Of a stretch of 64,000 nt of DNA, positions 2,366 to 59,438 are shown in pieces. Within the stretch, counting starts at the first letter, position 1, and every line of letters begins with the position of its first letter. This DNA comes from a virus (taxonomy: Duplodnaviria; Caudoviricetes). Below the pieces are notes generated by a model, which saw only the letters and a program-made list of their open reading frames with translations, ran no database searches and was not told the DNA's origin. The position numbers were made by a program, and so were the translations under genes. The DNA lies in the IMG/VR virus record IMGVR_UViG_3300014204_000010, positions 1 through 64,000 of that record. One strand, 5' to 3'.

Positions 2366-2779
2366 ATGGCACTTTTCGATGAGAAACAAGTGGTGACACT
2401 TACTCCGAAACCAGGATTGATTCGAAGACGGCAGCCTTTGGTTCCGGAGGAACTGCCTAAAGCAATACTCACCAGAAAAACTCCGTTTGTCTCTACAAAT
2501 TCGGAACCCTGTCTCTATGAGCCAGAAGTCCGGATATTAACTGGACAGCTCTGGAACAGAAGATGGGCTCCTAAATGGGATGACAGAGAAGTGGCGGAAA
2601 ACTGTGAACACCTCGTCCGGGTTTGTGAGAAATTCCACAAATCGGTACCCTCAGTTTTGGCAAAGATGAAACTCAAAGCTACCAGTAATTTAGATTTCTA
2701 TAGTCTCGTGGACTTTGTCTGTGAAGGTGTATTAGATTGGGAACTTCGGCAGAAGCTAACCCCTAAACGAAAGGAATGA
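2366..2779 (+). CDS. Hypothetical protein with N-terminal TLTPKPGLIRRR motif
   Basis: 137-aa ORF, AGGA SD, first gene after promoter. Confidence 0.75.
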   Translation: MALFDEKQVVTLTPKPGLIRRRQPLVPEELPKAILTRKTPFVSTNSEPCLYEPEVRILTGQLWNRRWAPKWDDREVAENCEHLVRVCEKFHKSVPSVLAKMKLKATSNLDFYSLVDFVCEGVLDWELRQKLTPKRKE

Positions 2780-2964
2780 AGATGGCTCAAGATGAAGATA
2801 AAAAAGCCTGCTACATTCGGTTTCCGGAACAAGTGAAGCTTAGAATGGATCATCAGCAGGAGCGACTAGGGGGGATTACCAGGAACGCCTTCGTAACTAT
2901 GTCGGTAGTTAGATACCTGGAAGCCTTAGAGAAAGAAGAGAGAGAATTAGGGGAAAGGAGGTAA
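2776..2964 (+). CDS. Ribbon-helix-helix (Arc/CopG-like) regulator
   Basis: KKACYIRFPEQVK beta strand plus helix, G-ITRNAFV second helix; 62 aa. Confidence 0.7.
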   Translation: MKMAQDEDKKACYIRFPEQVKLRMDHQQERLGGITRNAFVTMSVVRYLEALEKEERELGERR

Positions 2965-2967
2965 ATC

Positions 2968-3444
2968 TTGATTTGTCTCTATTGTAAGGATTTCCAATAT
3001 TCTTCTGCGCGGATTAAAGAACAGAGGTTCTGTCGATTCACGCAGAAGATGGTGGAAAGGACGGATGAACATTGTCATCATCCCGACCCAGTAAAGTACT
3101 TTTGGTGTAGAAGAGCCGAATGCTTCCTGGATGTAGTAGTCTGCATCAGTCGGCAGAGCAAAGGTAATCGGGATTGTGCAACTTGTAGGAAACAAAAGAC
3201 GGAGATTTATGACCTACGGAAGATCATAAACCGCTATAAACCGAGACCGGAAATTCCAATAACACCGGTCATTGTCAACGATGAGGACGACAACGAGAAG
3301 GAAGAGTGGGAAGAAAGTGCTCCCGTTCATACTCCCGTGAAACTGATCAGAAGATCGGAAAAGACTGATTCGGATTTACCACCAAAAGAAGAAGAACCCA
3401 CAGTAACATTAATACCAAAAACAACCTTGATACGCCGGAGATAA
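2968..3444 (+). CDS. Cys-rich metal-binding protein with disordered tail
   Basis: TTG start with GGAGG SD; about 8 Cys in N-half; acidic/Pro tail ending TLIPKTTLIRRR. Confidence 0.7.
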   Translation: MICLYCKDFQYSSARIKEQRFCRFTQKMVERTDEHCHHPDPVKYFWCRRAECFLDVVVCISRQSKGNRDCATCRKQKTEIYDLRKIINRYKPRPEIPITPVIVNDEDDNEKEEWEESAPVHTPVKLIRRSEKTDSDLPPKEEEPTVTLIPKTTLIRRR

Positions 3445-3456
3445 AAGGGGGACTCG

Positions 3457-3786
3457 ATGGCAAAGGATTCTGAAGACGATTTTGTATCAGCGGCAACTAT
3501 TTACTTTGGTAGGTGGGAAACCGAAGAATCTCTGCAAGATGAGATTCAGGATTCCCCTGAAAAAGAGGTCATGTTTTTGTCCTTCTTGCAGTCGTTGAAA
3601 GGAGAAGTCCAACTTTTCGCTCACACAATACTGACCTTACCTTCGGATATGTTTTACCTTAACGGAAAGTTGAAGACCGACCAAGCGGAGAGGTTTATGA
3701 AAGAAAAATACGGATGGTCAAGAGGCAAGTTTGAGAAAGCCCGAGAAAAATTAGTCCAAGAAATTCTTGCCCATCAGTCATCCTAG
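3457..3786 (+). CDS. Hypothetical protein, possibly sigma region-4-like helical domain
   Basis: Helical C-terminus KEKYGWSRGKFEKAREKL resembles C-termini of phage sigma-like proteins; function is inference only. Confidence 0.5.
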   Translation: MAKDSEDDFVSAATIYFGRWETEESLQDEIQDSPEKEVMFLSFLQSLKGEVQLFAHTILTLPSDMFYLNGKLKTDQAERFMKEKYGWSRGKFEKAREKLVQEILAHQSS

Positions 3787-3792
3787 GAAATT

Positions 3793-3822
3793 CTACGGGC
3801 TTTTCAGTTTTTATGATATACT
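3793..3822 (+). promoter_or_regulatory. Extended -10 promoter, CNNCGG class
   Basis: CTACGGG ... TGATATACT; CGG 21 bp before the -10 hexamer as at 13656 and 27899. Confidence 0.65.
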
Positions 3823-3852
3823 AAAGACAGCAATAAAAAATCAGGAGAAAGG

Positions 3853-3876
3853 GTGGGAGGGGTTTTCCCCTCCCAC
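3853..3876 (+). promoter_or_regulatory. Perfect 10-bp hairpin in helicase leader
   Basis: GTGGGAGGGG-TTTT-CCCCTCCCAC between AGGAG SD and ATG 3889. Confidence 0.6.
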
Positions 3877-3888
3877 GTGAGAGAGAAG

Positions 3889-5265: not shown

Positions 5266-5432
5266 TGAAACTATTCGGGCAGAAGTTGGAATCTTCAGGT
5301 ACTTGGGCTTGTTTTCCTGGAGACAATTCCTCCTTGCTTCTGCCCGATTTCCAATAAATAGGAGGTGAGGAGCGATGATGGAACTTCCAAAAATTAAATC
5401 CCAATATGGTGTGATGGTAAAAAGGAGGGGTG

Positions 5433-5714: not shown

Positions 5715-5715
5715 A

Positions 5716-5871: not shown

Positions 5872-5885
5872 GAAAGGAATAAAGA

Positions 5886-6221
5886 ATGGAACTTCCGAAG
5901 GTTTACAAACCTGTCACTTTGCGACCGAAGACCTCCATAGGGATAAAACAACGCCGTTTCGGCGTAATGGTCGAAACTGACGGAGAAAATAAAGGTGGTG
6001 TATTCGGTCCTTATGAAAAATTGGAGACTGCTTTGGAGGTAATTCCGTCATATTCGGATTTAGGTATGAATACAAACTTTGACTCACCTCCCCTTGATTT
6101 GTCCAAAACTAAATTCGTAATCTGCTATCTTAACGGATTAGATTATGTAAACCTCTATGAATGGAACTTTGGTAAAGATCAATGGGAAATGCGTGAAGGG
6201 GTGGAAATAAAGGATATATAA
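5886..6221 (+). CDS. Hypothetical protein
   Basis: 111-aa ORF with AAGGA SD. Confidence 0.65.
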   Translation: MELPKVYKPVTLRPKTSIGIKQRRFGVMVETDGENKGGVFGPYEKLETALEVIPSYSDLGMNTNFDSPPLDLSKTKFVICYLNGLDYVNLYEWNFGKDQWEMREGVEIKDI

Positions 6222-7517: not shown

Positions 7518-7727
7518 ATGCTGGATGACCAAGTTAAACCTTTGTACTTTGGAGACGGGGAAGACCCAGATGAAGACGATTGGGATGATGAAGAGGACGA
7601 CTTCGAAGACGAAGAGGACGATTGGGATGACTTTGAAGATGAAGAGGAAGAGGACGACTGGGATGAGGAAAACGATATAGATGATACCCCAGACGATGAG
7701 GAAGATGAAGACGAGGTGGAAGGTTGA
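7518..7727 (+). CDS. Extremely acidic 69-aa peptide
   Basis: 46 of 69 residues D/E, periodic W/F; GGGGG SD; TGA overlaps TTG start of initiator. Confidence 0.75.
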   Translation: MLDDQVKPLYFGDGEDPDEDDWDDEEDDFEDEEDDWDDFEDEEEEDDWDEENDIDDTPDDEEDEDEVEG

Positions 7728-9286
7728 AAACTGAGCTTCAGCAGAAACTGGGTTGGGCTGCTGGGATTGAAGAGAACAGAGCCTTAGTAAGGATCCTAGG
7801 ACCTGTGGAAGCAATAGTACTGTTTGAGTTACTTATTGAGGATGGGAAAACTGATAATGAATGGTTTTCCCTTCCTCAAACCCTCATTGCAGAAAATACA
7901 GGGATTTCTTTCCGCAGACAAATCACAACCCTAGAAAAACTTACATCAGTTAACGGTGTTCTGACCCGTGTTCTCAAGGGTATGCCCGCTCGATTTTACT
8001 ATAAAATCAACTACCAAAGGATTGAGGAGCTTCTCAGTTCTAACAAATTGTTAATACAGCAAAACGCCTGTAAACCAGCGGAAAATTGCAGTTTAGACAA
8101 ATTGTTAATACTGAGAAAACCTGAACCCCAGGATAAGTCTCAGTTTAGACAAATTGTGAATACAGCAAACCCCGTAGTTTTAACACCTAAGAAACCGGTT
8201 TTAACGCTGAAAAACACAGTAATTCTCACGCCTAAGGTAGCGGTTGCAGGGTTGACATTGAAAGCCTCGGTAGTAGGCCAAGAGAAAGAAGAAAAGAAAG
8301 TAATACAAAGAAAAGAAGAAAGAGAAAATAAGGAAGGGAGTAATTATACTAATCCTAATAATAGTTATAGTAATATTAAACCTATTTTCCTTACGGAAAA
8401 TAGGGGCACTCACTTCTCCGAGGTGAGTGCGGCCACTGCTGCTGTGCAGCAAAAACACACCCTTGTTAAGAGGGATACAACTGAGGATTTATGGAAAGAT
8501 AATTATAAAGGCTTTGTTGGTACGGTTGAAACTTCTCCGGAAGCTGAGGCTATTATCTCTTTCTGGAAAAGTAACGGTCTCAAATGTCGGAATAAAGGTA
8601 CTAAGGGTTACATTAAAACCCTCCAATATATTCGGGCAGCTCTGAACGGTAGTTTGTACAGCCAGAACAGACCTGATCTTGCCGGAGTAGAATATACCTT
8701 GGAAGGAATTAAAGGTGCTATTAAGAACTTTGCTCTCGCGGCATTTCATCCGGAGTACGAACCAATATCCTTTGTCAAGAAGCAATTCTACCAAAAGGTT
8801 ACCCTTGATTGTTTCTTCTATCAGCAGTTTTCTCCTGGGGATGAAAATAAAAGGTTATTCTTGACCTTCTTGAAAAAACCGGAGACAGCTCGTCCTAAGT
8901 TTGCTCGTAGGGAAGAAGAAGGTGAAATCTCTAAGGTGGCTACGAAAGTATTGATTGACTGGTTTACAAAGAAAGGTTATCCCTACTCTGAAGAAAAAGA
9001 AGGGGAGGCTTTTGTGGCGGCATCGAATGCCATATTCAGGTTTTACCACGATCACAAGAATGACCTCCTCATAGATACATTTGACTACTGGGGAAGGTTA
9101 TTTGGGCTGACAGACCCAATACAGATAATGGCTCAATTGGTAACCAAAAGCTTCGATGCAAAGCTTCTGGAAGGAAAGAATCAGAAGAACTTTAATCCAG
9201 GATGGGTGGCTTCTGAATTACGTCGTCCGGATTATTTTGTTCGTTACCTAAAAGACAACAACATCCTGAGGTCGGCAAAGAGATGA
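7724..9286 (+). CDS. Replication initiator / replisome organiser
   Basis: N-terminal winged helix (EWFSLPQTLIAENTGISFRRQ..LEKL); internal iteron-like repeats and AT-rich tract; directly upstream of DnaB. Confidence 0.75.
   Translation: MKTELQQKLGWAAGIEENRALVRILGPVEAIVLFELLIEDGKTDNEWFSLPQTLIAENTGISFRRQITTLEKLTSVNGVLTRVLKGMPARFYYKINYQRIEELLSSNKLLIQQNACKPAENCSLDKLLILRKPEPQDKSQFRQIVNTANPVVLTPKKPVLTLKNTVILTPKVAVAGLTLKASVVGQEKEEKKVIQRKEERENKEGSNYTNPNNSYSNIKPIFLTENRGTHFSEVSAATAAVQQKHTLVKRDTTEDLWKDNYKGFVGTVETSPEAEAIISFWKSNGLKCRNKGTKGYIKTLQYIRAALNGSLYSQNRPDLAGVEYTLEGIKGAIKNFALAAFHPEYEPISFVKKQFYQKVTLDCFFYQQFSPGDENKRLFLTFLKKPETARPKFARREEEGEISKVATKVLIDWFTKKGYPYSEEKEGEAFVAASNAIFRFYHDHKNDLLIDTFDYWGRLFGLTDPIQIMAQLVTKSFDAKLLEGKNQKNFNPGWVASELRRPDYFVRYLKDNNILRSAKR
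8035..8400. repeat. Putative replication origin: three ~30-bp iterons plus A-rich/AT-rich tract
   Basis: CAGTTyWRACAAATTGTkAATACwG copies at 8035, 8089, 8141; AT-rich 8280-8400. Confidence 0.7.
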
Positions 9287-10857
9287 TCATTAACCGGGAA
9301 AAGATAGATACAGCCATTGAGAACCAAATAACTACAGCGATGATTTTATCCACTCGTTATTTAACCGAAATCTTTACCTTGTATGAAGCGGAGTACATGG
9401 TAAACCCTTATGCCAAAGTTATATGTGCTTGGTGTATTGACTACTACAAGGTTCATGGTAAAGCCCCACAAGAAACTATTCGGGATATATACGAATTGGA
9501 AAAAGGTTATATGTCCGATGCTGATGCCCAGATAGTCTCAGCTTTTCTCTCCAAGATAAGTAGGGAGTATGTTTCGGGACAGTCGGTGAATGACGAGTAC
9601 GCCTTGAAGGAATCCCTCAGCTACTTTAACCGAAGGAACATTACTGTACGAGCTGAGAAAGCTCTCAGGTTATTGGACTTAGACCGTCATGAGGAAGCCC
9701 AGCAAGTTTTCACTGACTACAAACAGGTTTCTTATCAGCTTTCTGGTTGGTTTAATCCCTACGATCCTCAAGGTATTTGGGAAGTGTTTGATCCTAGCAC
9801 TCAAGGTATTCTACAGTTACCCGGAGCTGTAGGGGAGATAGTCGGTCCGATTGAAAGGGAATGGTTTGTAGCTTTACTCGGACCGTTCAAGAGAGGCAAG
9901 ACCTTTGCTCTGATGAAGATGGCTAGATGGGCCGTCGATCAGAGATTAAAGGTGGCTTTCTTCTCCCTGGAAATGAAGAAGAAAAATATCAAGGAGAGGT
10001 TTGCAAGAGACATCACAGGATATGGTGTGAAGAATGGTTCAGGAGAGGAAGAGATAGTCTATCCTGTCTTTGACTGCATTCATAACCAAAGTGGGGAGTG
10101 CAACCGTCCAGAAAGAACTAATCAAGAGAGTCTGGTAAATGTGGTAACAGGTTATACCGCAGACTCGTTTAACCGAGAACTCACTTATAGGGCATGTACA
10201 GCTTGTAGGGGTCAGGGAAGACTGAGTACCTTCAAGCAGACTGTCTGGTTTGAGACGGCTCAAGTGCCTGCGTTCGACTTCCGAAACACCTTCGACTTCT
10301 TGAAAAGCTATGAAGAAATCTATGGGTCGGAAAATCTGAAAGTTATCCCCTACCCAAGATTCAAAGCTTCCCTCGATGACATCGAAAGAGATTTGTTTTC
10401 ACTGGAAGTAAACACAGGATTCATTCCCGACGTAATTATAATTGACTACGCCGACATTCTCTTGCCTAACAAGTCAAGAGAGGGTAGAAGATTTGAGGTA
10501 GACGACATCTGGAAGCTTCTCCCAGCTATGGCGTCGGAACGAAAGTGCATAGTCATTTCAGCTAGCCAGGGTAATAGGGATTCTGTTTATTCAGATGCCT
10601 TAGGTCAAGACGACATCGCTGAATGGATTGGGAAGTTTGCTCATGTGGATATATTTCTCTGTTTGAATCAAACTCCTGAAGAGAAGCGGAAGAATCTACT
10701 TAGGCTAGGTATGCTTGCCCACAGACACAAGGACTTCGATGAAGAGAGAATGGCTATGATCGTGCAACAACTAAGGGTCGGTCAGTTCTGGTTAGACTCA
10801 GAAGTTATCCGGTACGAAATAGACCGAGAAGCGAAAGCAGCTAAGAAGAGGAGGTAG
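9283..10857 (+). CDS. dnaB: DnaB-family replicative helicase
   Basis: GPFKRGKT, FFSLEM, IIIDYADIL, SASQGNR, AHVD motifs; Cys-rich insertion. Confidence 0.9.
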   Translation: MIINREKIDTAIENQITTAMILSTRYLTEIFTLYEAEYMVNPYAKVICAWCIDYYKVHGKAPQETIRDIYELEKGYMSDADAQIVSAFLSKISREYVSGQSVNDEYALKESLSYFNRRNITVRAEKALRLLDLDRHEEAQQVFTDYKQVSYQLSGWFNPYDPQGIWEVFDPSTQGILQLPGAVGEIVGPIEREWFVALLGPFKRGKTFALMKMARWAVDQRLKVAFFSLEMKKKNIKERFARDITGYGVKNGSGEEEIVYPVFDCIHNQSGECNRPERTNQESLVNVVTGYTADSFNRELTYRACTACRGQGRLSTFKQTVWFETAQVPAFDFRNTFDFLKSYEEIYGSENLKVIPYPRFKASLDDIERDLFSLEVNTGFIPDVIIIDYADILLPNKSREGRRFEVDDIWKLLPAMASERKCIVISASQGNRDSVYSDALGQDDIAEWIGKFAHVDIFLCLNQTPEEKRKNLLRLGMLAHRHKDFDEERMAMIVQQLRVGQFWLDSEVIRYEIDREAKAAKKRR

Positions 10858-19474: not shown

Positions 19475-20347
19475 ATGAAATTCAAAATCTTCCTGGATTC
19501 CGGTGCATTTAGTGCCTTCATGAACAAAGCGACTGTTTCTCTCCAGAACTACATCGACTATATTCTGGAGAATGAGCAATACATCGAGACCTACGCTTGT
19601 CTTGACGACATCGGATCTCCTGAGAAAACATGGGAGAATCAAAGGGAGATGGAGAGACAGGGGCTGAGTCCTCTCCCCGTCTATCATATGGGAGAACCCG
19701 AAGAGTTCTTCCAACGAGTTCTTGAGTATCCTCACTTTGCAGTCGGAGGGATTGCTTCAAGCGTAAAGGGTTCTGGTTCCTTACAAAACCATCTGGACAT
19801 TCTCTTCTCCCGCATCTGTACTGAAAAGACAGATTATTATCCCTCTCATAAAGTTCATGGTTTCGGTATAGCTATTCCTCAACTGATAGCCCGCTATCCT
19901 TTCTACAGTATTGACACAAGTTCCTGGGTTGCTTATGGAAAGTATGGAATCATCCTAGTTCCTAGAAAAGTACACGGGAAACTGAGGTTTGATGTTTCCC
20001 CCTACACAGTAACGGTGTCTACCCGATCGAAAGCTGTCGGAGAAGCAAAGCACTTTCAGCATCTTCCCAAGATTGAGCAAGACTGGATTATAGAATACTG
20101 TGGGAATCACGGGATGCAGATGGGTATATCCACTTTCACCAAATGTCCATTGGGGCAAAAGTTGGAGAAGAATCAACACAGGGTAAGCAAAGGCTCCGAG
20201 GATGTCGAAGTTGTACTGGAGAAGGGTCTCATAAATGATCATGAATCCAGAGACAGAATGAATCTTATCTTCTTCTTGGAAATGGAGAAACACCAACCTA
20301 AATGGCCTTGGAGATGGTATCAACAAAAGAAGGAAGGTCTTTTTTAA
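19475..20347 (+). CDS. dpdA: DpdA-like DNA-guanine transglycosylase
   Basis: FLDSGAFS, LDDIG, PVYH, AVGG, HGFG, YSIDTSSW TGT-fold motifs; clustered with que genes. Confidence 0.85.
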   Translation: MKFKIFLDSGAFSAFMNKATVSLQNYIDYILENEQYIETYACLDDIGSPEKTWENQREMERQGLSPLPVYHMGEPEEFFQRVLEYPHFAVGGIASSVKGSGSLQNHLDILFSRICTEKTDYYPSHKVHGFGIAIPQLIARYPFYSIDTSSWVAYGKYGIILVPRKVHGKLRFDVSPYTVTVSTRSKAVGEAKHFQHLPKIEQDWIIEYCGNHGMQMGISTFTKCPLGQKLEKNQHRVSKGSEDVEVVLEKGLINDHESRDRMNLIFFLEMEKHQPKWPWRWYQQKKEGLF

Positions 20348-20349
20348 AA

Positions 20350-20547
20350 ATGATCCTCTATCTATCCGGGAACTTCCCGCAATTAGCCAAGATTGAAAAA
20401 GAAGATGCAATGATAGAATGGATGAGGGAACATGACTACGACTATCACCGTTTAATTACCTTTTTTTATAAAGATGACTGTGATAGAGTGTTTCAAAACG
20501 TAAAAACCAAACGAAAACCGACATTTATAAGGAGGAACGAGAAATAG
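20350..20547 (+). CDS. 65-aa protein resembling the N-terminal segment of DpdA-like proteins
   Basis: MILYLSG...RLITFFY; starts 2 nt after dpdA stop; ORF is real, function is inference. Confidence 0.55.
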   Translation: MILYLSGNFPQLAKIEKEDAMIEWMREHDYDYHRLITFFYKDDCDRVFQNVKTKRKPTFIRRNEK

Positions 20548-20549: not shown

Positions 20550-20723
20550 ATGGATCGAGAACTTCTGGACTCCCTGGAGAAATCTGTAGCCGCAGCTAAG
20601 AAGATGTACTGGTCTCTCCGGGCAAAATCAAGCAAGAGGGAAACCCCTCATTGCAAACGCGGACAATCTCCACAAATCTCTTATAGTTACCTACAACAAA
20701 TTCAGAAAGGAGTGTTACGATAA
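20550..20723 (+). CDS. Hypothetical 57-aa protein
   Basis: Hand-translated; TAATG coupling to clamp gene. Confidence 0.5.
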   Translation: MDRELLDSLEKSVAAAKKMYWSLRAKSSKRETPHCKRGQSPQISYSYLQQIQKGVLR

Positions 20724-21748
20724 TGGTAGTAAACAGGACGGAGCTTCTGAAGATTCTGGCATCACTGAAACCAGGACTTGCTAAGAAAGAGATGGTGGAA
20801 CAGGCAACACACTTCATCTTTACCGGGGATGATGTCGTGACCTACAATGATCAGATTTGTATATCCCACCCTTATCTTTCAGGAATCAAATTCTCTGTTA
20901 AAGGAGAAGAGTTTTACAAGTGTCTGGAAGTAGCTCAAGGAGATGATGTCGATCTCATTCTCCAGGAAAACAAACTCAGCATCAAAGCCAAGAAGACGAA
21001 AGCGAGTCTTTCTCTGGTATTAGATGACAGGGATAGGGTAGAGTCCCACATTTCAAAAATGAAAGCCACTATGAGTGACTGGGTTCCTCTACCGTCAGAC
21101 TTTCTTTATGCTCTGTCCTTATGTTCGTTTTCGGCATCAAGGGATTTATCCACAGGCATTCTCGCTTGTGTCATGATTACCAACAACAAAGTGTTTGCCA
21201 CGGACAGGAACCGAGTAAGTCGGTTTACCTTAGAGCAAAGTCTCAATAACACCTTCTTCTTGTTTGCCAGGGACGTTCTTGAGCTTCTGAAACTTCCCGT
21301 CACAGAGTTTTGTATCCCGGAGGGGTGGGTTCACTTCAAGACCAAAGATGATGTGACTTTCAGTTGCCGAACAATTTCGGGGAGTCTACCGAATCTAAAC
21401 AATTTCTTCAATGTGGAAGGTCCTACAATAAAGCTTCCAGACGACTTGAAGGAATCTGTAGACGCGGTAATCTTCATGACCAAAGGTGACAGTGAATCTT
21501 CCAGATTTATTGAAGTAGCTATCACTGAAGGTAAGTTGACTGTCAAAGGTGAAAAAGAAAGAGGTTGGATTGAGAAGATGGTTAACATCGACTACAAGGA
21601 TGAACCCATCACTTTCAGGATTAATCCTAACTTTCTCTCTCAGATACTTGAAAGATCAGCGAATATAACCGTCGGGAGAAAAGCGGTGTACTTCAATACC
21701 GAAAAATTCGAACATGTTATTGCACTAGTTCTTATGGAGACGGCATAA
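20723..21748 (+). CDS. dnaN: DNA polymerase sliding clamp (beta-like)
   Basis: 341 aa; three-domain pattern, FATDRNR, INPNFLSQIL; adjacent to polymerase. Confidence 0.85.
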   Translation: MVVNRTELLKILASLKPGLAKKEMVEQATHFIFTGDDVVTYNDQICISHPYLSGIKFSVKGEEFYKCLEVAQGDDVDLILQENKLSIKAKKTKASLSLVLDDRDRVESHISKMKATMSDWVPLPSDFLYALSLCSFSASRDLSTGILACVMITNNKVFATDRNRVSRFTLEQSLNNTFFLFARDVLELLKLPVTEFCIPEGWVHFKTKDDVTFSCRTISGSLPNLNNFFNVEGPTIKLPDDLKESVDAVIFMTKGDSESSRFIEVAITEGKLTVKGEKERGWIEKMVNIDYKDEPITFRINPNFLSQILERSANITVGRKAVYFNTEKFEHVIALVLMETA

Positions 21749-24330
21749 TGTCGGGATTCTTTGACCTCAGTGAAATCAGAACCGACTTCGACAGACCTCT
21801 TTGCCTAGAATGTGGATTATTCAAGACATGTCTTCATCCGTACATGCCCACCGGGGGTAAAGGGAAACTTGAAGTTCTGGAGATCGCGGAAGCCCCCGGT
21901 GAGGAAGAAGACAAAAGGAATACCCAATTAGTCGGGGAGGTCGGGCTTTACTTCCGAAACAAGCTCAAGAAGCACGACATATACTTGGATGAGGATTTCT
22001 GGAAAGAGAATGCTCTAGCTTGCCGTCCCCCCAATAACAAGGAACCTGAACCTGATCAGGTTCGATGCTGCAAACCAAGACTTGACAAAGTGATCGAGGA
22101 GTTAAACCCAAGAATTATTCTTCTCATGGGTAAATCCGCGATAGAATCTTTCTTCAAGGACAGGTTTGATGATCCGTCTCCTTCAAAATGGAGGAAGCTC
22201 TGTATCCCCGATTATAAGACAGGGGCATGGATAATACCACTATTTCATCCCTCTTATGGTAAAAGAAATGAAGCTGACAATCTACTCCAAGCTACTTACG
22301 ATCAAGACTTGGAATTTGCCATTGAGAAGATAAGAACAAAGCAGAGGATAAAAAGAGGGGGATTTCCGAAGGTAGAAGAGAACATAAAAATCCTCAAGAA
22401 GTACGACGAAGTTATTGACGTTCTGGAGGATACAATAAAGAATCCGCCAGAGTATATCATCCATGATTATGAGACTAACAGAAAGAAACCTTTTGTAAAA
22501 GACAGCAAGATTGCTTCGATCTCTTTTTCTCCCGGAGATCCTAACTCAGCTTGGGCTTTTCCTCTCAGTTACCCCTGGTGGAAACCTTCTGAGGAAGAGA
22601 CTATAAAGAAGATGTGGGGGAAGGTTCTGAAAGGACCAAGCAAGAAAGTTTCCCATAGTATGCAGTTTGAGGACAGTTGGGGACGAGCCGTTATCGGAGT
22701 TTTACCTGCATCTTGGCATTGGTGTACAATGACAGTTGCTCACATCCTGGATAATAGAACGGGTTTTACACCATTAAAATTTCAAGCTTATATTCATTGG
22801 GGAGCACCTGATTGGGAAAGAACTGTAAAGCATTACCTGGAGAATGCAAACACTAAGGGTTTTAACAGAGTAATGGAAGTTCCGTTAGATGAACTGCTGC
22901 TTTATAATGGACTTGACTCTTTGTGGGAGACCCGACTTCTCTACCTTCAAAAGAAGCTTGTTGATTCTCATTTAATGAAGGGTGTAAATCTATTCATGGA
23001 TGGTCTGATAGACTTCTCAGACATGCACATGGCAGGTATAAATGTTGATCGTAATTATTATAAGGGAGCTTTCGATGAAGTGGAATCTATGGAGAGCGAC
23101 ATCAAGAGGAAACTTCTGGAACTACCAGAATGCCAGAAGTTCTTTGAAGTATTCAGACGCCCACCCAACTTAGGTTCAGGAAAAGACCTGAGGACGATAT
23201 TCTTTTCAAAGAGCATTCTCGGTTTACCGTCCGTAAAGATGACGGAGAATGAACAGGACTCAGTAGACGCTAGCGTTTTATCCCAACTAGATTCTCCCTT
23301 AGCTCAAAGTTTAACCGACCTAAGTAAACTATCCAAGATAAAAGGTACTTATATAAAGCAGTTTGTTAAGAATATCCAAGATGACGGTAGAGTACACCCG
23401 TCATCGAATCTTCATATACCAAGATCGTACAGACCTAGCACGACAGAACCAAACTTTGCAAACATTCCTGTCAGGGACGAGAACGCCAAGAGATTATCCC
23501 GATCGGGCATCATTCCTAGCAAGGGCAGGTCTATCGTTGACTGGGATTATGGTGCCATTGAAGTGAAGATGGCAGCATGTTATACCCATGATCCAGCTCT
23601 CATATCTTATTGTAATGATCCGACTACAGATATGCACCGAGATCAGGCAATGGACATCTTCTGTCTTCCGGCAGGTCAGGTGACCAAGAAACTCAGGTTC
23701 TTCTCTAAGAACGGATTTGTATTCCCTCAATGGTATGGATCAACATACAAGGCTTGTGCCAGAAACATATGGAGAGAATGTGCTTACCTAAAGACAGCCG
23801 ACGGTATTACTGTTCATGAGTGGTTAGAATCCTGCAAGATCATCAAGAACAGGGATAAAGCCTTAGATGAATTTACCAAGCATATGAAGGGTGTGGAAGA
23901 TCGTTTATGGAAGAGATTTCATGTCTTTCAAGAGTGGAGACAAACCCATTATAAAAACTTCATTGAGAAGGGTTATGTGGAACTTCTGACAGGTTTCAGA
24001 TGTCGTGGTTATCTCGGTAAGAACGAAGTGGTAAACTATCCGTTTCAGGGTACAGCTTTCCATTGTTTGCTCAAATCAATACATCTCAGCAAAGAGCTTT
24101 TTGAGGAAGAAGGTCTGGACTCGTTCTACTTGGGGCAAATCTACGACAGTGGTGTGCTAGACGTAGTTCCTGAGGAGCAAAACCACATAATTCATGTTAC
24201 TACAGAAATAGCTACCGTGAAGATAAAAGAAATCTTCCCGTGGATCATTGTCCCTCTGACAGTAGAATGGGAAGCTACAGGAGTAGATGCTCCTTGGTAT
24301 GCAAAGAAAGAAGTCACTGAGGAGGAATAA
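21748..24330 (+). CDS. polA: Family A DNA polymerase with N-terminal family-4 uracil-DNA glycosylase-like domain and 3'-5' exonuclease
   Basis: CLEC..C, AEAPG..ED, NALACRP, HPS (UDG4); HDYET and YNGLD (exo); DYGAIEVK, KNGFVFPQWYG, QIYDS (pol A/B/C). Confidence 0.93.
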   Translation: MSGFFDLSEIRTDFDRPLCLECGLFKTCLHPYMPTGGKGKLEVLEIAEAPGEEEDKRNTQLVGEVGLYFRNKLKKHDIYLDEDFWKENALACRPPNNKEPEPDQVRCCKPRLDKVIEELNPRIILLMGKSAIESFFKDRFDDPSPSKWRKLCIPDYKTGAWIIPLFHPSYGKRNEADNLLQATYDQDLEFAIEKIRTKQRIKRGGFPKVEENIKILKKYDEVIDVLEDTIKNPPEYIIHDYETNRKKPFVKDSKIASISFSPGDPNSAWAFPLSYPWWKPSEEETIKKMWGKVLKGPSKKVSHSMQFEDSWGRAVIGVLPASWHWCTMTVAHILDNRTGFTPLKFQAYIHWGAPDWERTVKHYLENANTKGFNRVMEVPLDELLLYNGLDSLWETRLLYLQKKLVDSHLMKGVNLFMDGLIDFSDMHMAGINVDRNYYKGAFDEVESMESDIKRKLLELPECQKFFEVFRRPPNLGSGKDLRTIFFSKSILGLPSVKMTENEQDSVDASVLSQLDSPLAQSLTDLSKLSKIKGTYIKQFVKNIQDDGRVHPSSNLHIPRSYRPSTTEPNFANIPVRDENAKRLSRSGIIPSKGRSIVDWDYGAIEVKMAACYTHDPALISYCNDPTTDMHRDQAMDIFCLPAGQVTKKLRFFSKNGFVFPQWYGSTYKACARNIWRECAYLKTADGITVHEWLESCKIIKNRDKALDEFTKHMKGVEDRLWKRFHVFQEWRQTHYKNFIEKGYVELLTGFRCRGYLGKNEVVNYPFQGTAFHCLLKSIHLSKELFEEEGLDSFYLGQIYDSGVLDVVPEEQNHIIHVTTEIATVKIKEIFPWIIVPLTVEWEATGVDAPWYAKKEVTEEE

Positions 24331-27952: not shown

Positions 27953-28543
27953 TTGCTTATGCCAGACGACAAAGATTTACCGGGAGATGAAGAATTTGAG
28001 GAACTGGGAGACGAAGAGGACAAGAACTTCCCTCTCAAAAAACATATTGATGTCTATGAATTGGATCGGTGTGCAGTCGAACAAGTAGACTTATACCACA
28101 TATGGGGAGAGCGTTTAGCCCGAGCCGAAAGAACCAAACAGTCCTGTATAGAAGAACTTGCTTATGAGAAGGCAAAACTTTCGGTAAAAATCAGAGAAGA
28201 CCCCGAGAAATACGGGTGGGACCTCGAAAAAGAACCTACTGAACCTTGGGTAAAAGAACAGATTATTCTGGATGACAATATTCGGGCTTTAGCAAAAAAT
28301 GTCATTCAGGCTACATACCAATATAATATGATCAATAATGCAAGAAAGGAGGTACTAGAACACAGAAGAAAAAGTCTGGATATTCTTACTGAGCTTTACA
28401 AAGGTGATTATTGGGGAGGTAGATCGAAATGGTCACCTGCTGCTGACATTGCCCGGGAGAATGGTAAAAGGGAACAAACGGAAATGTTGAATGCAGACCC
28501 CGACTTGAAACAGCGTTTAACAAAGAAAGGGCAACCAGAATGA
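27953..28543 (+). CDS. UvsY-like recombination mediator
   Basis: Helical protein with KPTE.WV and LEHRRKSL pattern; directly upstream of SSB and RecA. Confidence 0.6.
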   Translation: MLMPDDKDLPGDEEFEELGDEEDKNFPLKKHIDVYELDRCAVEQVDLYHIWGERLARAERTKQSCIEELAYEKAKLSVKIREDPEKYGWDLEKEPTEPWVKEQIILDDNIRALAKNVIQATYQYNMINNARKEVLEHRRKSLDILTELYKGDYWGGRSKWSPAADIARENGKREQTEMLNADPDLKQRLTKKGQPE

Positions 28544-28713
28544 TACAAGAATCCTTTAAAATCCTTGTCGGATTTCTCTTTATCTTGGTTGCCTGGTGGG
28601 CTCTACTGAGAGTAGGATCCACCGCAGTATTTCACACATGGTTTAGACTAAAAAAGTATTATGAAGGAGGTAGTAATGGGATTAACGGCAGAACAAAGAA
28701 GGGCACTCTATGA
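28540..28713 (+). CDS. Small membrane protein (57 aa)
   Basis: Hand-translated; ILVGFLFILVAWWALL transmembrane segment; ATGA overlap. Confidence 0.55.
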   Translation: MIQESFKILVGFLFILVAWWALLRVGSTAVFHTWFRLKKYYEGGSNGINGRTKKGTL

Positions 28714-29890
28714 TCAGGAGTTACCTCAAAGGCAAGAAGAAAGCTATGCAAGAAAGGACGAGAAAGGTCGTTATAGATCAGTCTTTAAGACAGAAGAAAA
28801 AGCCGGCATCTCTTTCTGGGGAGCAAAAGACGGCGATCACAGAACAAGAATTATCCCGTATATCGTCGGGGAGAACAATCCCCAAAATCTAAAACCTGGA
28901 CAGGTTGCTTTTATATGTGAGATATTTACCCACAGACAAATCGGTATAAATGAGGATTCGATCCTCTGTCCTAATCTCACTTTTCGGAAACCTTGCCCCA
29001 TATGTCAGCATCAAGCAGACCTCAAACGGCGCCAAGGTGAGGGAGAAGACATTCCTAAAGAGGAAATTTCCAAACTTAATGCTTCCCGTAGAGCCATCTA
29101 TAACATAGTTTGTTACGATGACACTTCCCAGGAAGCAAAGGGAGTCCAGGTTTGGGAAGTCTCTTATGTTCTCTTCTCAGAAGAAGTGGAGAATCTGGCA
29201 AATAAGAAGCGTACCGGTGGAAAAATTCTTTATGCACACCACAATCAGGGTTGCATTATTTCCTTCCATAAACAAGGGAAGGGAAGAGACACCGAGTTTA
29301 GTGCTTTCGAATTTGAGGAAAGATGTCCCATAGATGATAGTTTTCTTGAACAGGCTCACTGTCTGGAAGATTTGGTTGAGGAACTCACCTACGACGAGAT
29401 TTACGATATGTACTGGGAGAATGCTTACGAAGCTGCACCGGATTCCCAGGAAGCAGCAGAAGCTACCAGAAAACCCAAATTGACGGAAGTTGAAAAGAAA
29501 CCCGAAGCAATAACAGATAATTCTAAAGCCGAGGCAGAAGCAGCAGCCAAAGCAAAAGCGGAAGCAGAAGCCAAAGCAAAAGCAGAGGCAGATGCCAAAG
29601 CCAAAGCAGAAGCAGCAGCAGCGGCCGAAGCAGCAGCCAAAGCTAAAGCGGAAGCAGAAGCAAAAGAAACTGCGGCTCTTCAGAAGAAGGAAGAGGACGC
29701 CCCAATATTCCCCGCAGATGAATCGGAAGAAGTGGCTTGTCCCTTTGGAGCAGCCTTCGGTGCCGACTTTGATCAGTACACGCAATGTGATGATTGCCCG
29801 GTTCGGGCAAAGTGCAAGGATAAAAAAGAAGGAAAGAAACCTCCAGTCGAAGAGAAACCTGCTAAGACATTAGTGAGAAGGAGGGCATAA
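28676..29890 (+). CDS. gp32-like single-stranded DNA-binding protein with long linker and C-terminal Cys cluster
   Basis: HRQIG..CP...CPIC, YNIV, K.GKGRDTEF; GAAGGAGG SD; AKAKAEAE repeats; C-terminal C..CDDC...C. Confidence 0.8.
   Translation: MGLTAEQRRALYDQELPQRQEESYARKDEKGRYRSVFKTEEKAGISFWGAKDGDHRTRIIPYIVGENNPQNLKPGQVAFICEIFTHRQIGINEDSILCPNLTFRKPCPICQHQADLKRRQGEGEDIPKEEISKLNASRRAIYNIVCYDDTSQEAKGVQVWEVSYVLFSEEVENLANKKRTGGKILYAHHNQGCIISFHKQGKGRDTEFSAFEFEERCPIDDSFLEQAHCLEDLVEELTYDEIYDMYWENAYEAAPDSQEAAEATRKPKLTEVEKKPEAITDNSKAEAEAAAKAKAEAEAKAKAEADAKAKAEAAAAAEAAAKAKAEAEAKETAALQKKEEDAPIFPADESEEVACPFGAAFGADFDQYTQCDDCPVRAKCKDKKEGKKPPVEEKPAKTLVRRRA
29522..29666 (+). repeat. Ala/Glu/Lys low-complexity coding repeat
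   Basis: AEAEAAAKAKAEAEAKAKAEADAKAKAEAAAAAEAAAKAKAEAEAKE. Confidence 0.85.
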
Positions 29891-32342: not shown

Positions 32343-32942
32343 ATGAATCCCAAGAGACACGGTAATAGTTTTGAGTGGGAAGTTTGCGGAAGTTTCTCCC
32401 GATTCTGGAGTAAAGGTGCTCGTGGTGATCTTTTCGGAAGAACAGATTCTTCGGGTGGTCGGGCTACGACGAGAGCTAAAACGGGACAGGAGACCGAGGG
32501 TCAGTTCGGGGATATGTGTGCCACAGCCGATGAAGGAAAGATCGTTGAAAGAAACTGGCATGTGGAGCTGAAAACAGGTTATTCCCAGAAGAGAAAACAA
32601 GCATTGGATAAGAGGAAAGTCCTCACCAATTGGTGCATTCTTGACCTAATCGACACAACACAGAAATTAACTGTATTTGAGGAGTTCTGGCTGCAATGTT
32701 TGGAAGGAGCTAACCATACAGGAAGGGAACCAATCCTAGTATTTAGGAGAACCCGTCTACAGAAATGTATTGCCTTTGAATACGATTATTTCTCCTACCT
32801 GATGGACTACTTCGGTAATCCGCCTATCGAGACTCCTCTTATTCACATAGAAACCCTTGACTATAGCATAGTTATTATGCTTTTGACCAACTTCTTTACC
32901 TGGTTGGAGCCCAGTGAATTGCTATTCAGGAGGAAGCAATGA
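32343..32942 (+). CDS. Holliday junction resolvase-like PD-(D/E)xK endonuclease
   Basis: GNSFEWEV, GDM, VELK, EPILVFRR. Confidence 0.8.
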   Translation: MNPKRHGNSFEWEVCGSFSRFWSKGARGDLFGRTDSSGGRATTRAKTGQETEGQFGDMCATADEGKIVERNWHVELKTGYSQKRKQALDKRKVLTNWCILDLIDTTQKLTVFEEFWLQCLEGANHTGREPILVFRRTRLQKCIAFEYDYFSYLMDYFGNPPIETPLIHIETLDYSIVIMLLTNFFTWLEPSELLFRRKQ

Positions 32943-55782: not shown

Positions 55783-55806
55783 TAAGACATCTCCTTTAAG
55801 AAGATT

Positions 55807-55829: not shown

Positions 55830-55854
55830 TTGTGATGGTTATACTTGGTAGGGA

Positions 55855-56457: not shown

Positions 56458-56462
56458 ACTTC

Positions 56463-56753: not shown

Positions 56754-57205
56754 CGCAATCTCACCGAATAAAGTTTAAACTTTGTTTCGTCCTCAAGGAC
56801 TGCTATTGTTGGTGTGGCGTCCCAAAAATCCTGAACAATCATTTGGGCAATAACTTCCCAAGGATTCTGAGTAACATCATATAATGGTATTCTCTTCATC
56901 CCATCCGTAAAAGTGGAATCAACTAAGAGTCCCTTTACGATGTCGGCCATTTCTGCCAGTTCATCCCCTTCGGGGTCTTCCCTGGAAAGACAGTAAATCT
57001 CAAAGAAGTATTCATTAAGTGCCTGTAAGCCAAAAGAACCGAATGACACACTATACCACTTGAGGACTGCTGCATTTCCCTGTGTTCTTGTATCAGGGGC
57101 AGCTAGTGAAACATCAAAGGTGACGGCCGTACCAAGAACGTCCAGAAAGAATTTCTTCAATGATCGTGTTACATTCACTTCTTTTGACAATTTATGGAGA
57201 CTCAT
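56735..57205 (-). CDS. Tail terminator/completion protein
   Basis: 156 aa; FEIYCLSRED pattern; neck position. Confidence 0.65.
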   Translation of the reverse strand: MSLHKLSKEVNVTRSLKKFFLDVLGTAVTFDVSLAAPDTRTQGNAAVLKWYSVSFGSFGLQALNEYFFEIYCLSREDPEGDELAEMADIVKGLLVDSTFTDGMKRIPLYDVTQNPWEVIAQMIVQDFWDATPTIAVLEDETKFKLYSVRLRWGAAQ

Positions 57206-57206
57206 G

Positions 57207-57392
57207 TTATTTCCACACAGACCTGATCAAGTTTTTAGCAAGTTCCACCTTCTGAACAAACGTGGGATAGAAGTCCCTAAAAGTATTTCCCACAAGAGGT
57301 CTTGGGGGAATGTTATGCGAAGGAAAGCCGTACTCTATGGCATAGACGTAAATGTTTGGATCCTTCGGTTTAGGAGTTTTCTTCTCGCTCAC
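57207..57392 (-). CDS. C-terminal part of HK97-gp10-like neck protein
   Basis: YAIEYG...PPRPL motif; GTG start with GGTGA SD. Confidence 0.6.
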   Translation of the reverse strand: MSEKKTPKPKDPNIYVYAIEYGFPSHNIPPRPLVGNTFRDFYPTFVQKVELAKNLIRSVWK

Positions 57393-57930
57393 GTTTTTTC
57401 ACCAGTAACGGGTTAGTCAATGACTGAGAATGTACCTTCGTTTGTGGTACATAGCCCTCAATGGATATATGTCTGAGGGTACTCATAGCTTCATGCCTTC
57501 GTTCCGTTGCACTCGTAGGTCTTTGTGTACTCTTCACTTCTTTACGCTTTACTACAGTTCTTTTGGTCGGTCGGGCAGCACCTTGAACTATGGCTCCTCC
57601 TACATACTTAAAACCGACAAAATATGATGTTCTTATGGGGGAGTTATCCACAGACCAATAGTTTATAGATTTCATCGCTGTGCCCAACCACAACCAGTAC
57701 TGACTTGAATTTGAAAACGCTTTCTTCCAAGATGCGGTTCTAGGGTGACCAAAATCGGAGTAGGTCTGTTCGACAATGTTCTTGCGGAGCTGCTTGGAGA
57801 AAGCAATAGCAGAGTCCAAGGGTATTCGGTTCTTCTGATCGACCACAACCTTCTTCACTCTTTCTAAAGCTGTTAGGATGCGGTTGAAATCACCTTGGTT
57901 CACTGTTATCTTAATCATCGTAAATGTCAC
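57370..57930 (-). CDS. N-terminal part of HK97-gp10-like neck protein with basic extension
   Basis: MIKITVN.GDFNRIL..L N-terminal pattern; lacks the EYG motif found in the next ORF. Confidence 0.6.
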   Translation of the reverse strand: MTFTMIKITVNQGDFNRILTALERVKKVVVDQKNRIPLDSAIAFSKQLRKNIVEQTYSDFGHPRTASWKKAFSNSSQYWLWLGTAMKSINYWSVDNSPIRTSYFVGFKYVGGAIVQGAARPTKRTVVKRKEVKSTQRPTSATERRHEAMSTLRHISIEGYVPQTKVHSQSLTNPLLVKKREREENS

Positions 57931-58576
57931 CGTCTATAACTACTGCTTTGGGTCTGGTATCTTCTACTAAAAGAGCCATGCAAACACTGGGGAAGTTATA
58001 CCTTTGGATATTCTCAATCTTGTAATACTCAGTCTCCGAGACAAAAACTCTATCCAAGGGTTTCAGATCGTATGAAGCCGGGTAATAAAAATCCAGTCGA
58101 TAAATAGCATTCTGTCCAGTTCTTACATTCTCCTCAAGTTGTGAACCAAAAAGTCGATCTGTTATCAGACCGTAAACCGGAGACTCTTTAATCACTTGCC
58201 ATCCTGAAATCATCTTCAAGGTTTCATTGTCTCGCACTTCTACGGGTCTTAGGATATGAGCCGTTACCGGAAGATTACAGAGGTAAAGAACTACACTCCA
58301 CTCTACTACCTCATCCTCAAACATCTCGGGTGTTTTGTTCATAACCAAGTAGTTGCGATTTAACTCGGTTATGTTCAGAACATCTCCGACAACGGCTTCC
58401 GAATCATAAGGAAAAGTGGCATCAAGATGATGCTCCCGAATAAAAGGTTTAGTTGCCTGGGAATTTATATCGTAAATAACCCACTGATCAGTGACCACTG
58501 GGTCTCTACTTATGATCGTAGTGGCAGAACCTTCTTCGGTGTAGACTTCCTTTATATCCTCCCCCAAGGATGCCAT
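57911..58576 (-). CDS. Head closure / head-tail joining protein
   Basis: 221 aa; two beta-barrel-like halves (VVGDVL, LKPLDRV); neck position. Confidence 0.6.
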   Translation of the reverse strand: MASLGEDIKEVYTEEGSATTIISRDPVVTDQWVIYDINSQATKPFIREHHLDATFPYDSEAVVGDVLNITELNRNYLVMNKTPEMFEDEVVEWSVVLYLCNLPVTAHILRPVEVRDNETLKMISGWQVIKESPVYGLITDRLFGSQLEENVRTGQNAIYRLDFYYPASYDLKPLDRVFVSETEYYKIENIQRYNFPSVCMALLVEDTRPKAVVIDGDIYDD

Positions 58577-59043
58577 TATTCAACCTCTCCCGGGGTGAAA
58601 ACTACATAATTCCGGACATCGTAAGTAAGATCGGCTCCATCTATGTCGTAAAGAAAACCGGCATCAATCTTCGTTCCAAACAATTTGTACAAGTCAACCC
58701 CACCAAATGCAGTCGGGTTTTCTGCCATAGCATCCTCAAACTCCTTATCCATCGTTTCGATAAGCTTCTGGAAATGCTCAAACCTGTTTTGCAGATTAAC
58801 GAGCTTGTATTTAAACTTGTTGGCAGAAGCTATTCGGAGAATGTCTACGCAATGTCTGGAAGCTCGATTGATCAACCAGAGAGCCTTTGTTGGGTCAGTC
58901 ACTGGATACGACCAACCCAACTCACTGATGGCCTTGTTTCCCGCAAACTCATATCCATCCGCAGATATTAGAGTGTTGAGGGAGGATAATTGGATGACCA
59001 CATAATCCGTAAGTTCGGCGGCATTATTAATGGTAAAAGACAT
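58576..59043 (-). CDS. Head-tail adaptor
   Basis: 155 aa helical protein after capsid-associated gene; position-based. Confidence 0.6.
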   Translation of the reverse strand: MSFTINNAAELTDYVVIQLSSLNTLISADGYEFAGNKAISELGWSYPVTDPTKALWLINRASRHCVDILRIASANKFKYKLVNLQNRFEHFQKLIETMDKEFEDAMAENPTAFGGVDLYKLFGTKIDAGFLYDIDGADLTYDVRNYVVFTPGEVE

Positions 59044-59045
59044 GG

Positions 59046-59438
59046 TTACTCCGTATTCTGTCTTTTCTTGATAAGGGTCTTAACCGGTGCCGGTACTTCA
59101 TCTGAAACGGGAGCAGTTGCCGGAACCGGTTCTTTCTTTTCCAGAGACCGTTTTGCTCGTGGAGCCTTTATTTCTTTCTCTGCGGCCTCTTTGCGGGCTA
59201 TGATAGCCGCTTGCTTTTTCTTCTCCTCCGATGTGTCATCAAAATTCACTGATACCTTTGCTTCAGTTTGGGGAGGAGGGGAGACTGAGGAGGGTTCTGG
59301 AATAACTTCAGCTTGCCCCCTCCTCAATCTCTTGAACATGAACTCAGGAATGGGTTCCTTGGAATCATCGAAAACCGTCCCTGCCGCGACCACTTGACCG
59401 CTACCTATTTTCAAATTCACCTTGAGCATAAGTTTCAT
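59046..59438 (-). CDS. Small capsid-adjacent protein with disordered tail
   Basis: Start MKLML at 59438 with AAGGAGG SD; tail ends KTLIKKRQNTE. Confidence 0.7.
   Translation of the reverse strand: MKLMLKVNLKIGSGQVVAAGTVFDDSKEPIPEFMFKRLRRGQAEVIPEPSSVSPPPQTEAKVSVNFDDTSEEKKKQAAIIARKEAAEKEIKAPRAKRSLEKKEPVPATAPVSDEVPAPVKTLIKKRQNTE

Follow-up and report, generated by a model that had tools for sequence, protein, structure and literature searches.

A short basic peptide recurs at the ends of about ten otherwise unrelated proteins, both DNA-handling and virion, of the uncultured phage IMGVR_UViG_3300014204_000010 (G000). The window analyzed here is the first 64 kb of its 89,373-base contig. In this phage, the consensus of the peptide, hereafter the tag, is P-x-K-[TG]-L-[IV]-[RK]-[RK]-R. 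The recurrence of this end tag, first remarked on in a first-pass annotation of the sequence, is confirmed. The tag is a real, selected short linear motif: its residue order is fixed, it is terminal, it lies in disordered segments, and it is kept in orthologues. The carriers include SSB (a protein that binds single-stranded DNA), RecA, the protein encoded before SSB, the large terminase, the portal, a neck-region protein, and a small head protein. It is also carried by the small early proteins, three or four in number, that flank a ribbon-helix-helix regulator (gene 2782-2964). All carriers with an assignable role either handle DNA or line the DNA path in the virion.

The two ends of the contig overlap by 124 bases; therefore, the genome (~89.25 kb) is circular or terminally redundant. 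Its G+C content is 43%. Megablast against isolated phages returned no match, and polymerase identity to the nearest isolates, which are Bacillus and Edwardsiella phages, does not exceed 24%. All counts for this phage refer to 145 proteins from our own simple open reading frame (ORF) calls, in which several N-termini hinge on start choice. The start of the large terminase was corrected by hand to the ATG at genome position 74108, 54 codons upstream of a 633-residue call starting at 73946. Pfam assigned the gp32-type SSB, RecA, and a PDDEXK resolvase, and PHROGs assigned a lambda-O-like initiator, a DnaB-like helicase, and a beta-like processivity factor (the clamp, gp20723, phrog_947). Further genes encode an E-family capsid protein, a lambda-type portal, a head protease, and the large terminase; the terminase and portal carriers lie just outside the 64-kb window. 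Neither Pfam nor PHROGs gave a match for the small carrier proteins. The six proteins with a core copy of the tag are as follows.

2396-2431, plus strand: N-terminal composite tag TLTPKPGLIRRR of gp2366 (gene 2366-2779); its Arg codons show no ribosome-binding site.
3340-3354, plus strand: first copy, (PV)KLIRR, in gp2968 (gene 2968-3444).
3406-3441, plus strand: C-terminal tag TLIPKTTLIRRR-stop of gp2968.
29864-29887, plus strand: C-terminal tip KTLVRRRA-stop of the gp32-like SSB (gene 28676-29890); RRR overlaps the RecA ribosome-binding site.
29897-29917, plus strand: N-terminal tag MGLIKKR of RecA (gene 29897-30994).
57373-57408, minus strand: C-terminal LLVKKREREENS of gp57370 (gene 57370-57918), in the head-tail joining gene block.
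59049-59081, minus strand: C-terminal KTLIKKRQNTE-stop of gp59046 (gene 59046-59438), a small head-module protein adjoining the capsid gene.

Every peptide quoted in the first-pass annotation was found where that annotation had placed it or immediately adjoining, and the proposal that the motif is commoner than in shuffled controls held. The pattern L[IV][RK][RK]R occurred six times against 0.25 expected from within-protein shuffles (0/1000 reached 6), and its reversed order had no copies in the 145 proteins. All core copies (6/6) lay within 23 residues of an end, with gp2366 and RecA tagged at the N-terminus and gp2968, SSB, gp57370, and gp59046 at the C-terminus. With B for a basic and phi for a hydrophobic residue, phi-phi-B-B-B was found six times in the last 12 residues, compared with 0.29 in tail-only shuffles that retained the basic composition of the tails. 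The alternative orders bbbhh, hbbbh, bhhbb, and bbhhb (b, basic; h, hydrophobic) each had zero occurrences in the last 12 residues. The free choice of motif in the earlier annotation was corrected for by counting all reduced-alphabet 5-mers within 25-residue windows at the protein termini (a look-elsewhere correction). L-[IV]-B-B-B was the top word (six proteins), and the maximum for any word in 500 shuffles was five. Four copies of the extended form P-x(1-3)-[TG]-L-[IV]-B-B-R were present where chance predicts none, and the looser pattern PK.{1,6}[LIV][IV][KR][KR] was found four times versus 0.24 in shuffles. As originally noted, the tags of gp2366 and gp2968 share 9 of 12 residues; with flanks, 11 of 18 are identical, and this 18-residue stretch is the sole similarity between the two proteins.

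Further proteins carry the tag or a related arm, several in weaker form.

1211-1249, plus strand: related internal arm IPKPKGKGRIVKR of gp1082 (gene 1082-1999).
5913-5957, plus strand: weaker N-terminal copy VTLRPKTSIGIKQRR of gp5886 (gene 5886-6221).
8456-8473, plus strand: internal HTLVKR in a linker of the initiator (gene 7724-9286), a possible weak copy that is not terminal.
28505-28540, plus strand: C-terminal LKQRLTKKGQPE of gp27959 (gene 27959-28543, before SSB), of the L-T-B-B subtype, as on SSB orthologues.
Genome positions 72045-74108 (L099 8045-10108), minus strand, outside the window: large terminase, whose N-terminal arm MALTLKRRKLIKRP carries the tag.

The placement of the tag on disordered ends, also part of the original claim, is borne out by structure prediction for SSB. 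An AlphaFold2 (AF2) model built from a 25-sequence alignment has a confidently modeled gp32 core, after which come a disordered stretch, a single helix of 58 residues, a small Cys4 (Zn) knuckle, and a disordered tail. The predicted local distance difference test (pLDDT) score of the tail is <50 over residues 395-400 and 402-404. The single helix is made of Ala, Lys, and Glu (residues 284-341), and an acidic DAPIFPADE stretch is internal, before the Zn knuckle; in relatives, the knuckle reads CP.G..FG.D....C..C..W..C. A single-sequence AF2 model of gp2968 had a mean pLDDT of 45, unusable for fold, with the tag-carrying residues 91-158 as coil. Atlas models were of low confidence, with a mean pLDDT of 0.58 for gp59046 and an uninformative model for gp2366. 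With models of this quality for both lead proteins (gp2366 and gp2968), the unrelated folds attributed to them in the first-pass annotation are putative.

Three relatives (G006, G007, and G008) were found by searching viral contigs with the gp59046 family. G006 is complete (90,579 bases with terminal repeats; G+C, 34%). All three are syntenic with G000, with identities of 77% for capsid, 47% for SSB, and 44% for polymerase; G000, G006, and G007 have roughly 55 proteins in common. The corresponding termini compare as follows.

RecA N-terminus: MGLIKKR in G000, MQKIIKKK in G006, MGLIRRN in G007.
SSB C-terminus: KTLVRRRA in G000, KKPLTRRSS in G006, RKKLTRREK in G007.
Large terminase N-terminus: MALTLKRRKLIKRP in G000, MKPKPIIKK in G006, MSKTLIRRE in G007.
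Portal C-terminus: PATKIIKRT... in G000, ...AKPIVKK in G006.
gp59046 C-terminus: KTLIKKR... in G000, ...KIKMKKKVR in G006, ...KKILKKSA in G007.

The worry that orthologues might lack the motif is thus answered by the same termini being tagged in G006 and G007. Among reciprocal-best pairs of G000 and G006, 4/9 termini tagged with phi-phi-B-B were also tagged in the partner, compared with 6/99 untagged termini (Fisher P=0.004); for same-terminus retention between G000 and G007, Fisher P was 0.045. G006 itself has 20 terminal phi-phi-B-B copies versus 10.6 expected (P=0.001) and eight in the reverse order versus 10.6, and the order-specific terminal excess is present in G007 and G008 too. The G006 orthologue of gp2968, found by tblastn, has the Cys-rich domain in common (E=4e-19) and ends in four copies (PKPIIKKK, PKPKIILHKK, PKPKMILHKK, and PKPIKKIIKK) between acidic spacers. 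At the position of gp2366, the G006 gene begins ...CPKPKKILHKRNP and has the N-terminal peptide PKPKKILHKR. The only close orthologue of gp57370 (41% identity) ends ERIKKRIRPEEE, the G007 orthologue ends ...KHLIGKKV..., and orthologues of gp27959 end RLKKLTKKE, RLKRRKIEK, MRLRRNKK, or RTLRRRRK. Across genomes, Lys and Arg interchange in the tag with G+C content (34% in G006 and 43% in G000).

A distant set comprised 37 viral contigs encoding RecA proteins 41-58% identical. In its nearer part, SSB has a basic tail; in its farther part, SSB stops directly after the Zn knuckle. Among the distinct basic SSB tails of the nearer relatives, 10/14 place one L, F, I, or V three to six residues from the end (e.g., RTLRRGR, PVLRRR, RRLSRRR, GRLRR, RGFRKR, and KIIKKKKK), many with CGN codons. 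The RecA N-termini of relatives are often M-x-phi-phi-B-B-B-like (MGKLLRK, MPLKRRRK, MPLRRIK, MVKLKKIQ, and MKLKRRKK). The RecA C-terminus bears a second, separate basic end motif, [ED]-R-K-P-K-[KE]-R (30971-30991), present in nearly all 37 relatives with varying codons.

A word-indexed protein search for orthologues of gp2968 and gp59046 gave self matches only. A full HMMER search with gp59046 recovered 46 homologous clusters (at 50% identity), with no Pfam model. Its members are small proteins in which a variable Pro/Ala/Glu/Lys linker connects a conserved N-domain of 50 residues to a conserved C-terminal ...P-x-V-K-K-V-L-x-K-K...; the N-domain reads MKVELLVNLK..G.IISAGT.F.D...PIPEF..RRL.RG.A. 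The pattern B-[B/T]-phi-phi-x?-B-B was present in the last 25 residues of 23/46 family sequences (gp59046 and 45 homologues), compared with 0.68 in shuffles (maximum, 4). In look-alike clusters of gp59046, SAP, HeH, or Rho_N nucleic-acid-binding modules replace the tail, a weak lead toward a DNA ligand. The motif was initially described as phage specific: its nature as a short linear motif under peptide-level selection stands, but it is not private to one phage, as it marks a small lineage and is widespread within the gp59046 family.

The gp59046 family bears on the possibility that the tag is a capsid-targeting or scaffold-like hook that binds the major capsid protein, either on gp59046, the portal, and the neck protein only or on all carriers as ejected cargo. 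A precedent is RIIK, a helix-and-hook found in both the 80alpha scaffolding protein and SaPI1 CpmB, with a basic-phi-phi-basic element near the C-terminus that follows an amphipathic helix (PMC5644958). In these unrelated proteins, it binds on the procapsid's inner side, where it occupies a single cleft (the A/P cleft) of the capsid protein (PMC5644958). RIIK is the closest match for the gp59046 family (KK-VL-x-KK), whose gene in this phage adjoins the capsid gene; as a family-conserved feature of a head-assembly protein, the basic-phi-phi-basic element holds for gp59046 only. Directly preceding the capsid gene is the gene for a 230-residue protein whose end reads GRFFILK (60728-60748, minus strand), or GRFFIMK in relatives; this scaffold-like C-terminal hook is reminiscent of RIIK, and a conserved GRFFI[LM]K end before the capsid gene also favors a capsid hook. 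However, this scaffold-like tail is of the form B-phi4-B and differs from phi2-B3. Unlike RIIK, most tag carriers are replication or recombination proteins, and some tags are N-terminal (n = 3). The terminase, SSB, and RecA are, moreover, needed outside the head. We therefore regard a capsid hook as unlikely.

It is extremely unlikely that the tag is a functionless by-product, with basic tails arising from purine-rich ribosome sites, composition, or a hydrophobic domain end before a basic tail. The codons of the copies differ: RRR is encoded by CGA AGA CGG in gp2366, CGC CGG AGA in gp2968, and AGA AGG AGG in SSB, and KKR is encoded by AAG AAA AGA in RecA and gp59046 and by AAA AAA CGT in gp57370. 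Only 3/9 synonymous positions match between the two lead peptides (gp2366 and gp2968), with wobble matches at chance level, which rules out a DNA repeat as the cause of the core copies. Because the codons differ, selection is on the peptide, and similarity among the core copies is, judged by codon usage, maintained at the peptide level. In favor of a by-product, basic ends are frequent in phage proteins, and AGGAGG, the Shine-Dalgarno site of the next gene, encodes RR of the gp20350, resolvase, and SSB tails. The gp20350 orthologue of G006 behaves likewise, ending ITLHRRIKDED with RR encoded by AGG AGA seven bases before the clamp gene start (its ribosome-binding site). The two window features concerned are ambiguous.

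20518-20544, plus strand: C-terminal PTFIRRNEK of gp20350 (PTFIRR at 20518-20535); RR is AGG AGG before the next gene.
32919-32939, plus strand: C-terminal LLFRRKQ-stop of the PDDEXK resolvase (gene 32343-32942); RR is AGG AGG, 5 nucleotides before the next ATG.

The tails of the resolvase orthologues vary. A ribosome-binding site accounts for RR in gp20350, the resolvase, and part of the SSB tail, but not for the other copies, most of which use CGN or AAR codons away from start codons; two are N-terminal. Tail-only shuffles control for composition, and the pattern is ~16 times as frequent in the coding frame as in the other five frames. No order bias is seen in five more distant relatives (G001 to G005), whose ribosome-site usage is equal and whose basic tails are many; therefore, basic tails or ribosome sites alone do not produce the pattern, and a generic domain end followed by a basic tail is ruled out. 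With conservation in orthologues and in the 46-cluster family, the by-product explanation is largely refuted by the controls.

The initiator holds a further set of peptides once counted among the tags.

8174-8266, plus strand: four xLTPK/xLTLK copies in the initiator; translated DNA direct repeats in an origin-like field, not a peptide tag.

The four direct repeats are 21-24 nucleotides long (GTTTTAACACCTAAG and variants, 8177-8262). They are preceded by three copies of a 29-nucleotide element with the palindrome TTAACAAATTGTTAA (8034, 8089, and 8141) and followed by a purine/A-rich run, and the whole field (8030-8335) lies inside the initiator gene. By its repeat layout, this field is probably a replication origin that, as in lambda O, lies in the gene for the initiator. 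At the matching place, the initiator of G002 has (KLSLTK)x5, and an iteron pattern scan of the window found no copies in tag-bearing genes. Thus, among the instances listed in the first-pass annotation, the core copies stand, and DNA-level explanations apply to xLTPK/xLTLK (repeats) and to the RR of PTFIRR and LLFRRKQ (AGGAGG sites). The tail AKAAKKRR of the DnaB-like helicase (gene 9283-10857; tail at 10831-10854, plus strand) is likewise a plain basic tail rather than the tag, and orthologues are without it.

Our preferred reading of what the tag does, held tentatively, makes it an arm for polyanion docking, for which phage DNA may be the default ligand. Each arm would combine a flexible, often Pro/Lys-containing tether, a hydrophobic pair (L or I, then I or V), and three Lys or Arg residues. 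The basic triplet would provide electrostatic affinity, and the Pro-Lys turn and aliphatic pair may impose a fixed geometry, acting as a wedge or a minor-groove contact; the flexible leash would keep each carrier tethered to DNA. DNA docking is favored because the carriers of known role all handle DNA and because Lys and Arg interchange with G+C content. It is also favored by the G006 orthologue of the ribbon-helix-helix regulator (L088 9064-9291), which has an LTPK-type arm: an added N-terminal MMMKKKALTPKSLTPKVEKPK, a KKKALTPKSLTPK arm with two LTPK units. Similarly, the four-copy tail of the G006 gp2968 orthologue, with its acidic spacers, resembles multi-hook DNA binders. Finally, because the tag extends across a 46-cluster family of many phages, a universal ligand fits better than a private protein.

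AT-hook and SPKK minor-groove arms are short and rich in Pro and Lys/Arg, and the AT-hook core is R-G-R-P. Like the tag, they sometimes occur in several copies between acidic spacers and adjoin DNA-binding domains. Several observations nonetheless weigh against DNA docking. The R-G-R-P core is absent (no copy contains G-R-P), an aliphatic pair being required instead. Plain DNA binding needs neither a strict L-[IV] pair nor a fixed order, and protein-docking motifs such as the SSB C-terminal (SSB-Ct) tip are typified by just this architecture, in which a disordered linker of variable sequence bears a conserved tip at the end of the protein. Across the whole proteomes of G001 to G005 (397 proteins), tails with the hydrophobic residues first are not in excess over tails with the basic residues first, and no terminal word recurs. 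In addition, the tag varies in concert: gp2366 and gp2968 both read LIRRR in G000, and their two G006 counterparts both read ILHK[KR]. As far as these sequences go, the concerted change points to either one specific co-evolving receptor or copying between genes.

A less probable but still credible explanation is that one protein receptor reads the tag as a common address; this hub would have a hydrophobic pocket rimmed by acidic residues and would gather replication, recombination, packaging, and head-completion proteins. Relative to the SSB-Ct, T7 acidic-tail, and clamp-binding systems, such a hub would be a counterpart with inverted charge. The strict hydrophobic pair, the fixed order, and the terminal position on disordered leashes agree with a receptor, as does the tag being the very tip of the SSB tail, a classical hub position. 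The absence of order bias in distant relatives suggests a lineage-specific receptor, and RIIK offers a precedent, since two unrelated proteins use the same B-phi-phi-B hook to reach a single site (PMC5644958). The concerted LIRRR versus ILHK[KR] difference affects two or three proteins; against its use as an argument, the copies in G006 have a DNA identity of 75%, which makes copying a possible alternative to co-evolution. No receptor was found, and the replication, packaging, and virion carriers are not known to meet at one protein. A narrower proposal, which we consider rather doubtful, is that the tag is a private co-evolving label read by one unrecognized phage receptor. It would bring the carriers to a single replication-and-packaging site, and sister phages would differ by a concerted rewriting of it (L-I-R-R-R here versus I-L-H-K-K in G006).

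The candidate partners put forward for the tag included the clamp and an acidic peptide.

7518-7727, plus strand: acidic/aromatic 69-residue peptide (67% acidic, with DDWDD/DDFED), in G000 only.

A comparable acidic ORF was found in none of G001 to G008 and at none of the 37 RecA loci. The peptide thus does not hold up as a conserved partner, since G006 to G008 keep the tag without such an ORF, and its absence from tag-bearing relatives counts against a receptor. Acidic/aromatic runs of similar make-up sit inside the SSB linkers of relatives L031, L029, L004, and G003. In relatives, SSB linker acidity goes with tail basicity.

The clamp is also an unlikely docking partner: the tag has no aromatic residue, and the polymerase carries a different motif. 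The T4 gp45-binding tails are one kind of clamp-binding peptide. Others are the bacterial QL[SD]LF, the PIP box, and APIM (PMC7261172, PMC11139829). Like the tag, clamp-binding peptides are terminal, disordered, and common to many DNA enzymes. K-T-L-[IV]-[KR] fits APIM ([KR]-[FYW]-[LIVA]-[LIVA]-[KR]) at 4/5 positions; the second position, Thr or Gly here, is one at which an aromatic residue is essential, and RALVK loses beta-clamp binding (PMC7261172). Position 2 reads T, G, or L throughout the six core copies and never F, Y, or W; membership in the APIM or clamp-binding class was therefore rejected. The polymerase termini (MSGFFDL... and ...KKEVTEEE) are without the tag. Its N-terminal M-x-G-F-F (21748-21765) is kept in relatives (MKGFF and MIPSFF), and DpdA ends ...KKEGLF (20330-20347). 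These two motifs are, from their sequences, better candidate ligands of the phage's own clamp (20723-21748), a further point against a protein receptor.

We consider it very unlikely that the tag is a tether to acidic phospholipid membrane or a signal for regulated proteolysis of the ClpX-type basic C-terminal kind. A hydrophobic and polybasic make-up suits lipid binding when multivalent, but two aliphatic residues give little membrane affinity. The MuA end RRKKAI is a ClpX-type basic C-terminal signal; C-motif 2 consists of a basic cluster and then small nonpolar residues at the C-terminus. The SSB tail, ending RRRA-COOH, is the only copy that resembles a MuA-type end. The others are 5-7 residues from the end or N-terminal, with ends such as RRR, KKRQNTE, and KKREREENS, and assignment of the tag to C-motif 2 was rejected. 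Overall, we rank DNA or polyanion docking first, one protein receptor second, a capsid hook third (mainly for gp59046), and an artefact last.

Two SSB-borne systems deserve separate comparison. The SSB-Ct tip is D-D-D-I-P-F, and T7 gp2.5 and gp4 have acidic, Phe-ended tails by which two replisome proteins dock on one partner. As in SSB-Ct, the tag is a conserved tip at the extreme SSB C-terminus after a variable disordered linker. SSB-Ct and the T7 tails, however, are acidic; the tag is basic, places its hydrophobic residues before the charges, and has far more carriers, including virion proteins. With a tip of K-T-L-V-R-R-R-A rather than an acidic-then-hydrophobic end, it is not an SSB-Ct. 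The LAST motif of T4 gp32 is Lys-Arg-Lys-Ser-Thr at residues 3-7 of the N-terminal arm, generalized as (K/R)3(S/T)2 (PMC12893549). It docks on an acidic surface of the neighboring SSB, mediating cooperative contact between SSB molecules, and resembles the DNA-contact residues of SSB itself (PMC12893549); therefore, a single basic tag is able to contact protein as well as DNA. Like the tag, LAST is short and basic, contains a hydroxyl residue, and sits on a terminal arm in an SSB of the gp32 family. LAST, however, is N-terminal, lacks a hydrophobic pair, and belongs to a single protein, whereas the tag here is C-terminal on SSB, behind the Zn knuckle, and present on about ten other proteins. 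Since the N-terminus of this SSB reads MGLTAEQRR... and its tag is C-terminal with a hydrophobic pair, assignment to LAST was also rejected. The tag thus works like SSB-Ct, LAST, RIIK, and the clamp peptides but belongs to none of these classes, lacking a defining feature of each.

Elsewhere in the early region, a type-P5 twister ribozyme (Rfam RF02684, 58 bits) lies at 939-995, between two small early genes.

Shared terminal peptides wire replisomes, as exemplified by SSB-Ct, clamp-binding motifs, and the T7 acidic tails. The uncultured phage lineage described here uses a tag of opposite charge on the SSB tip, RecA, terminase, portal, and head and neck proteins. So broad a set of carriers hints that replication or recombination is physically linked to packaging or, alternatively, that the DNA leash is a general design. 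If the single-receptor explanation is true, the tag would be a charge-inverted, phage-wide counterpart of the SSB-Ct or clamp hubs, spanning both DNA replication and virion assembly. The tag also provides a handle for annotating ORFan early proteins by the company that their tails keep.

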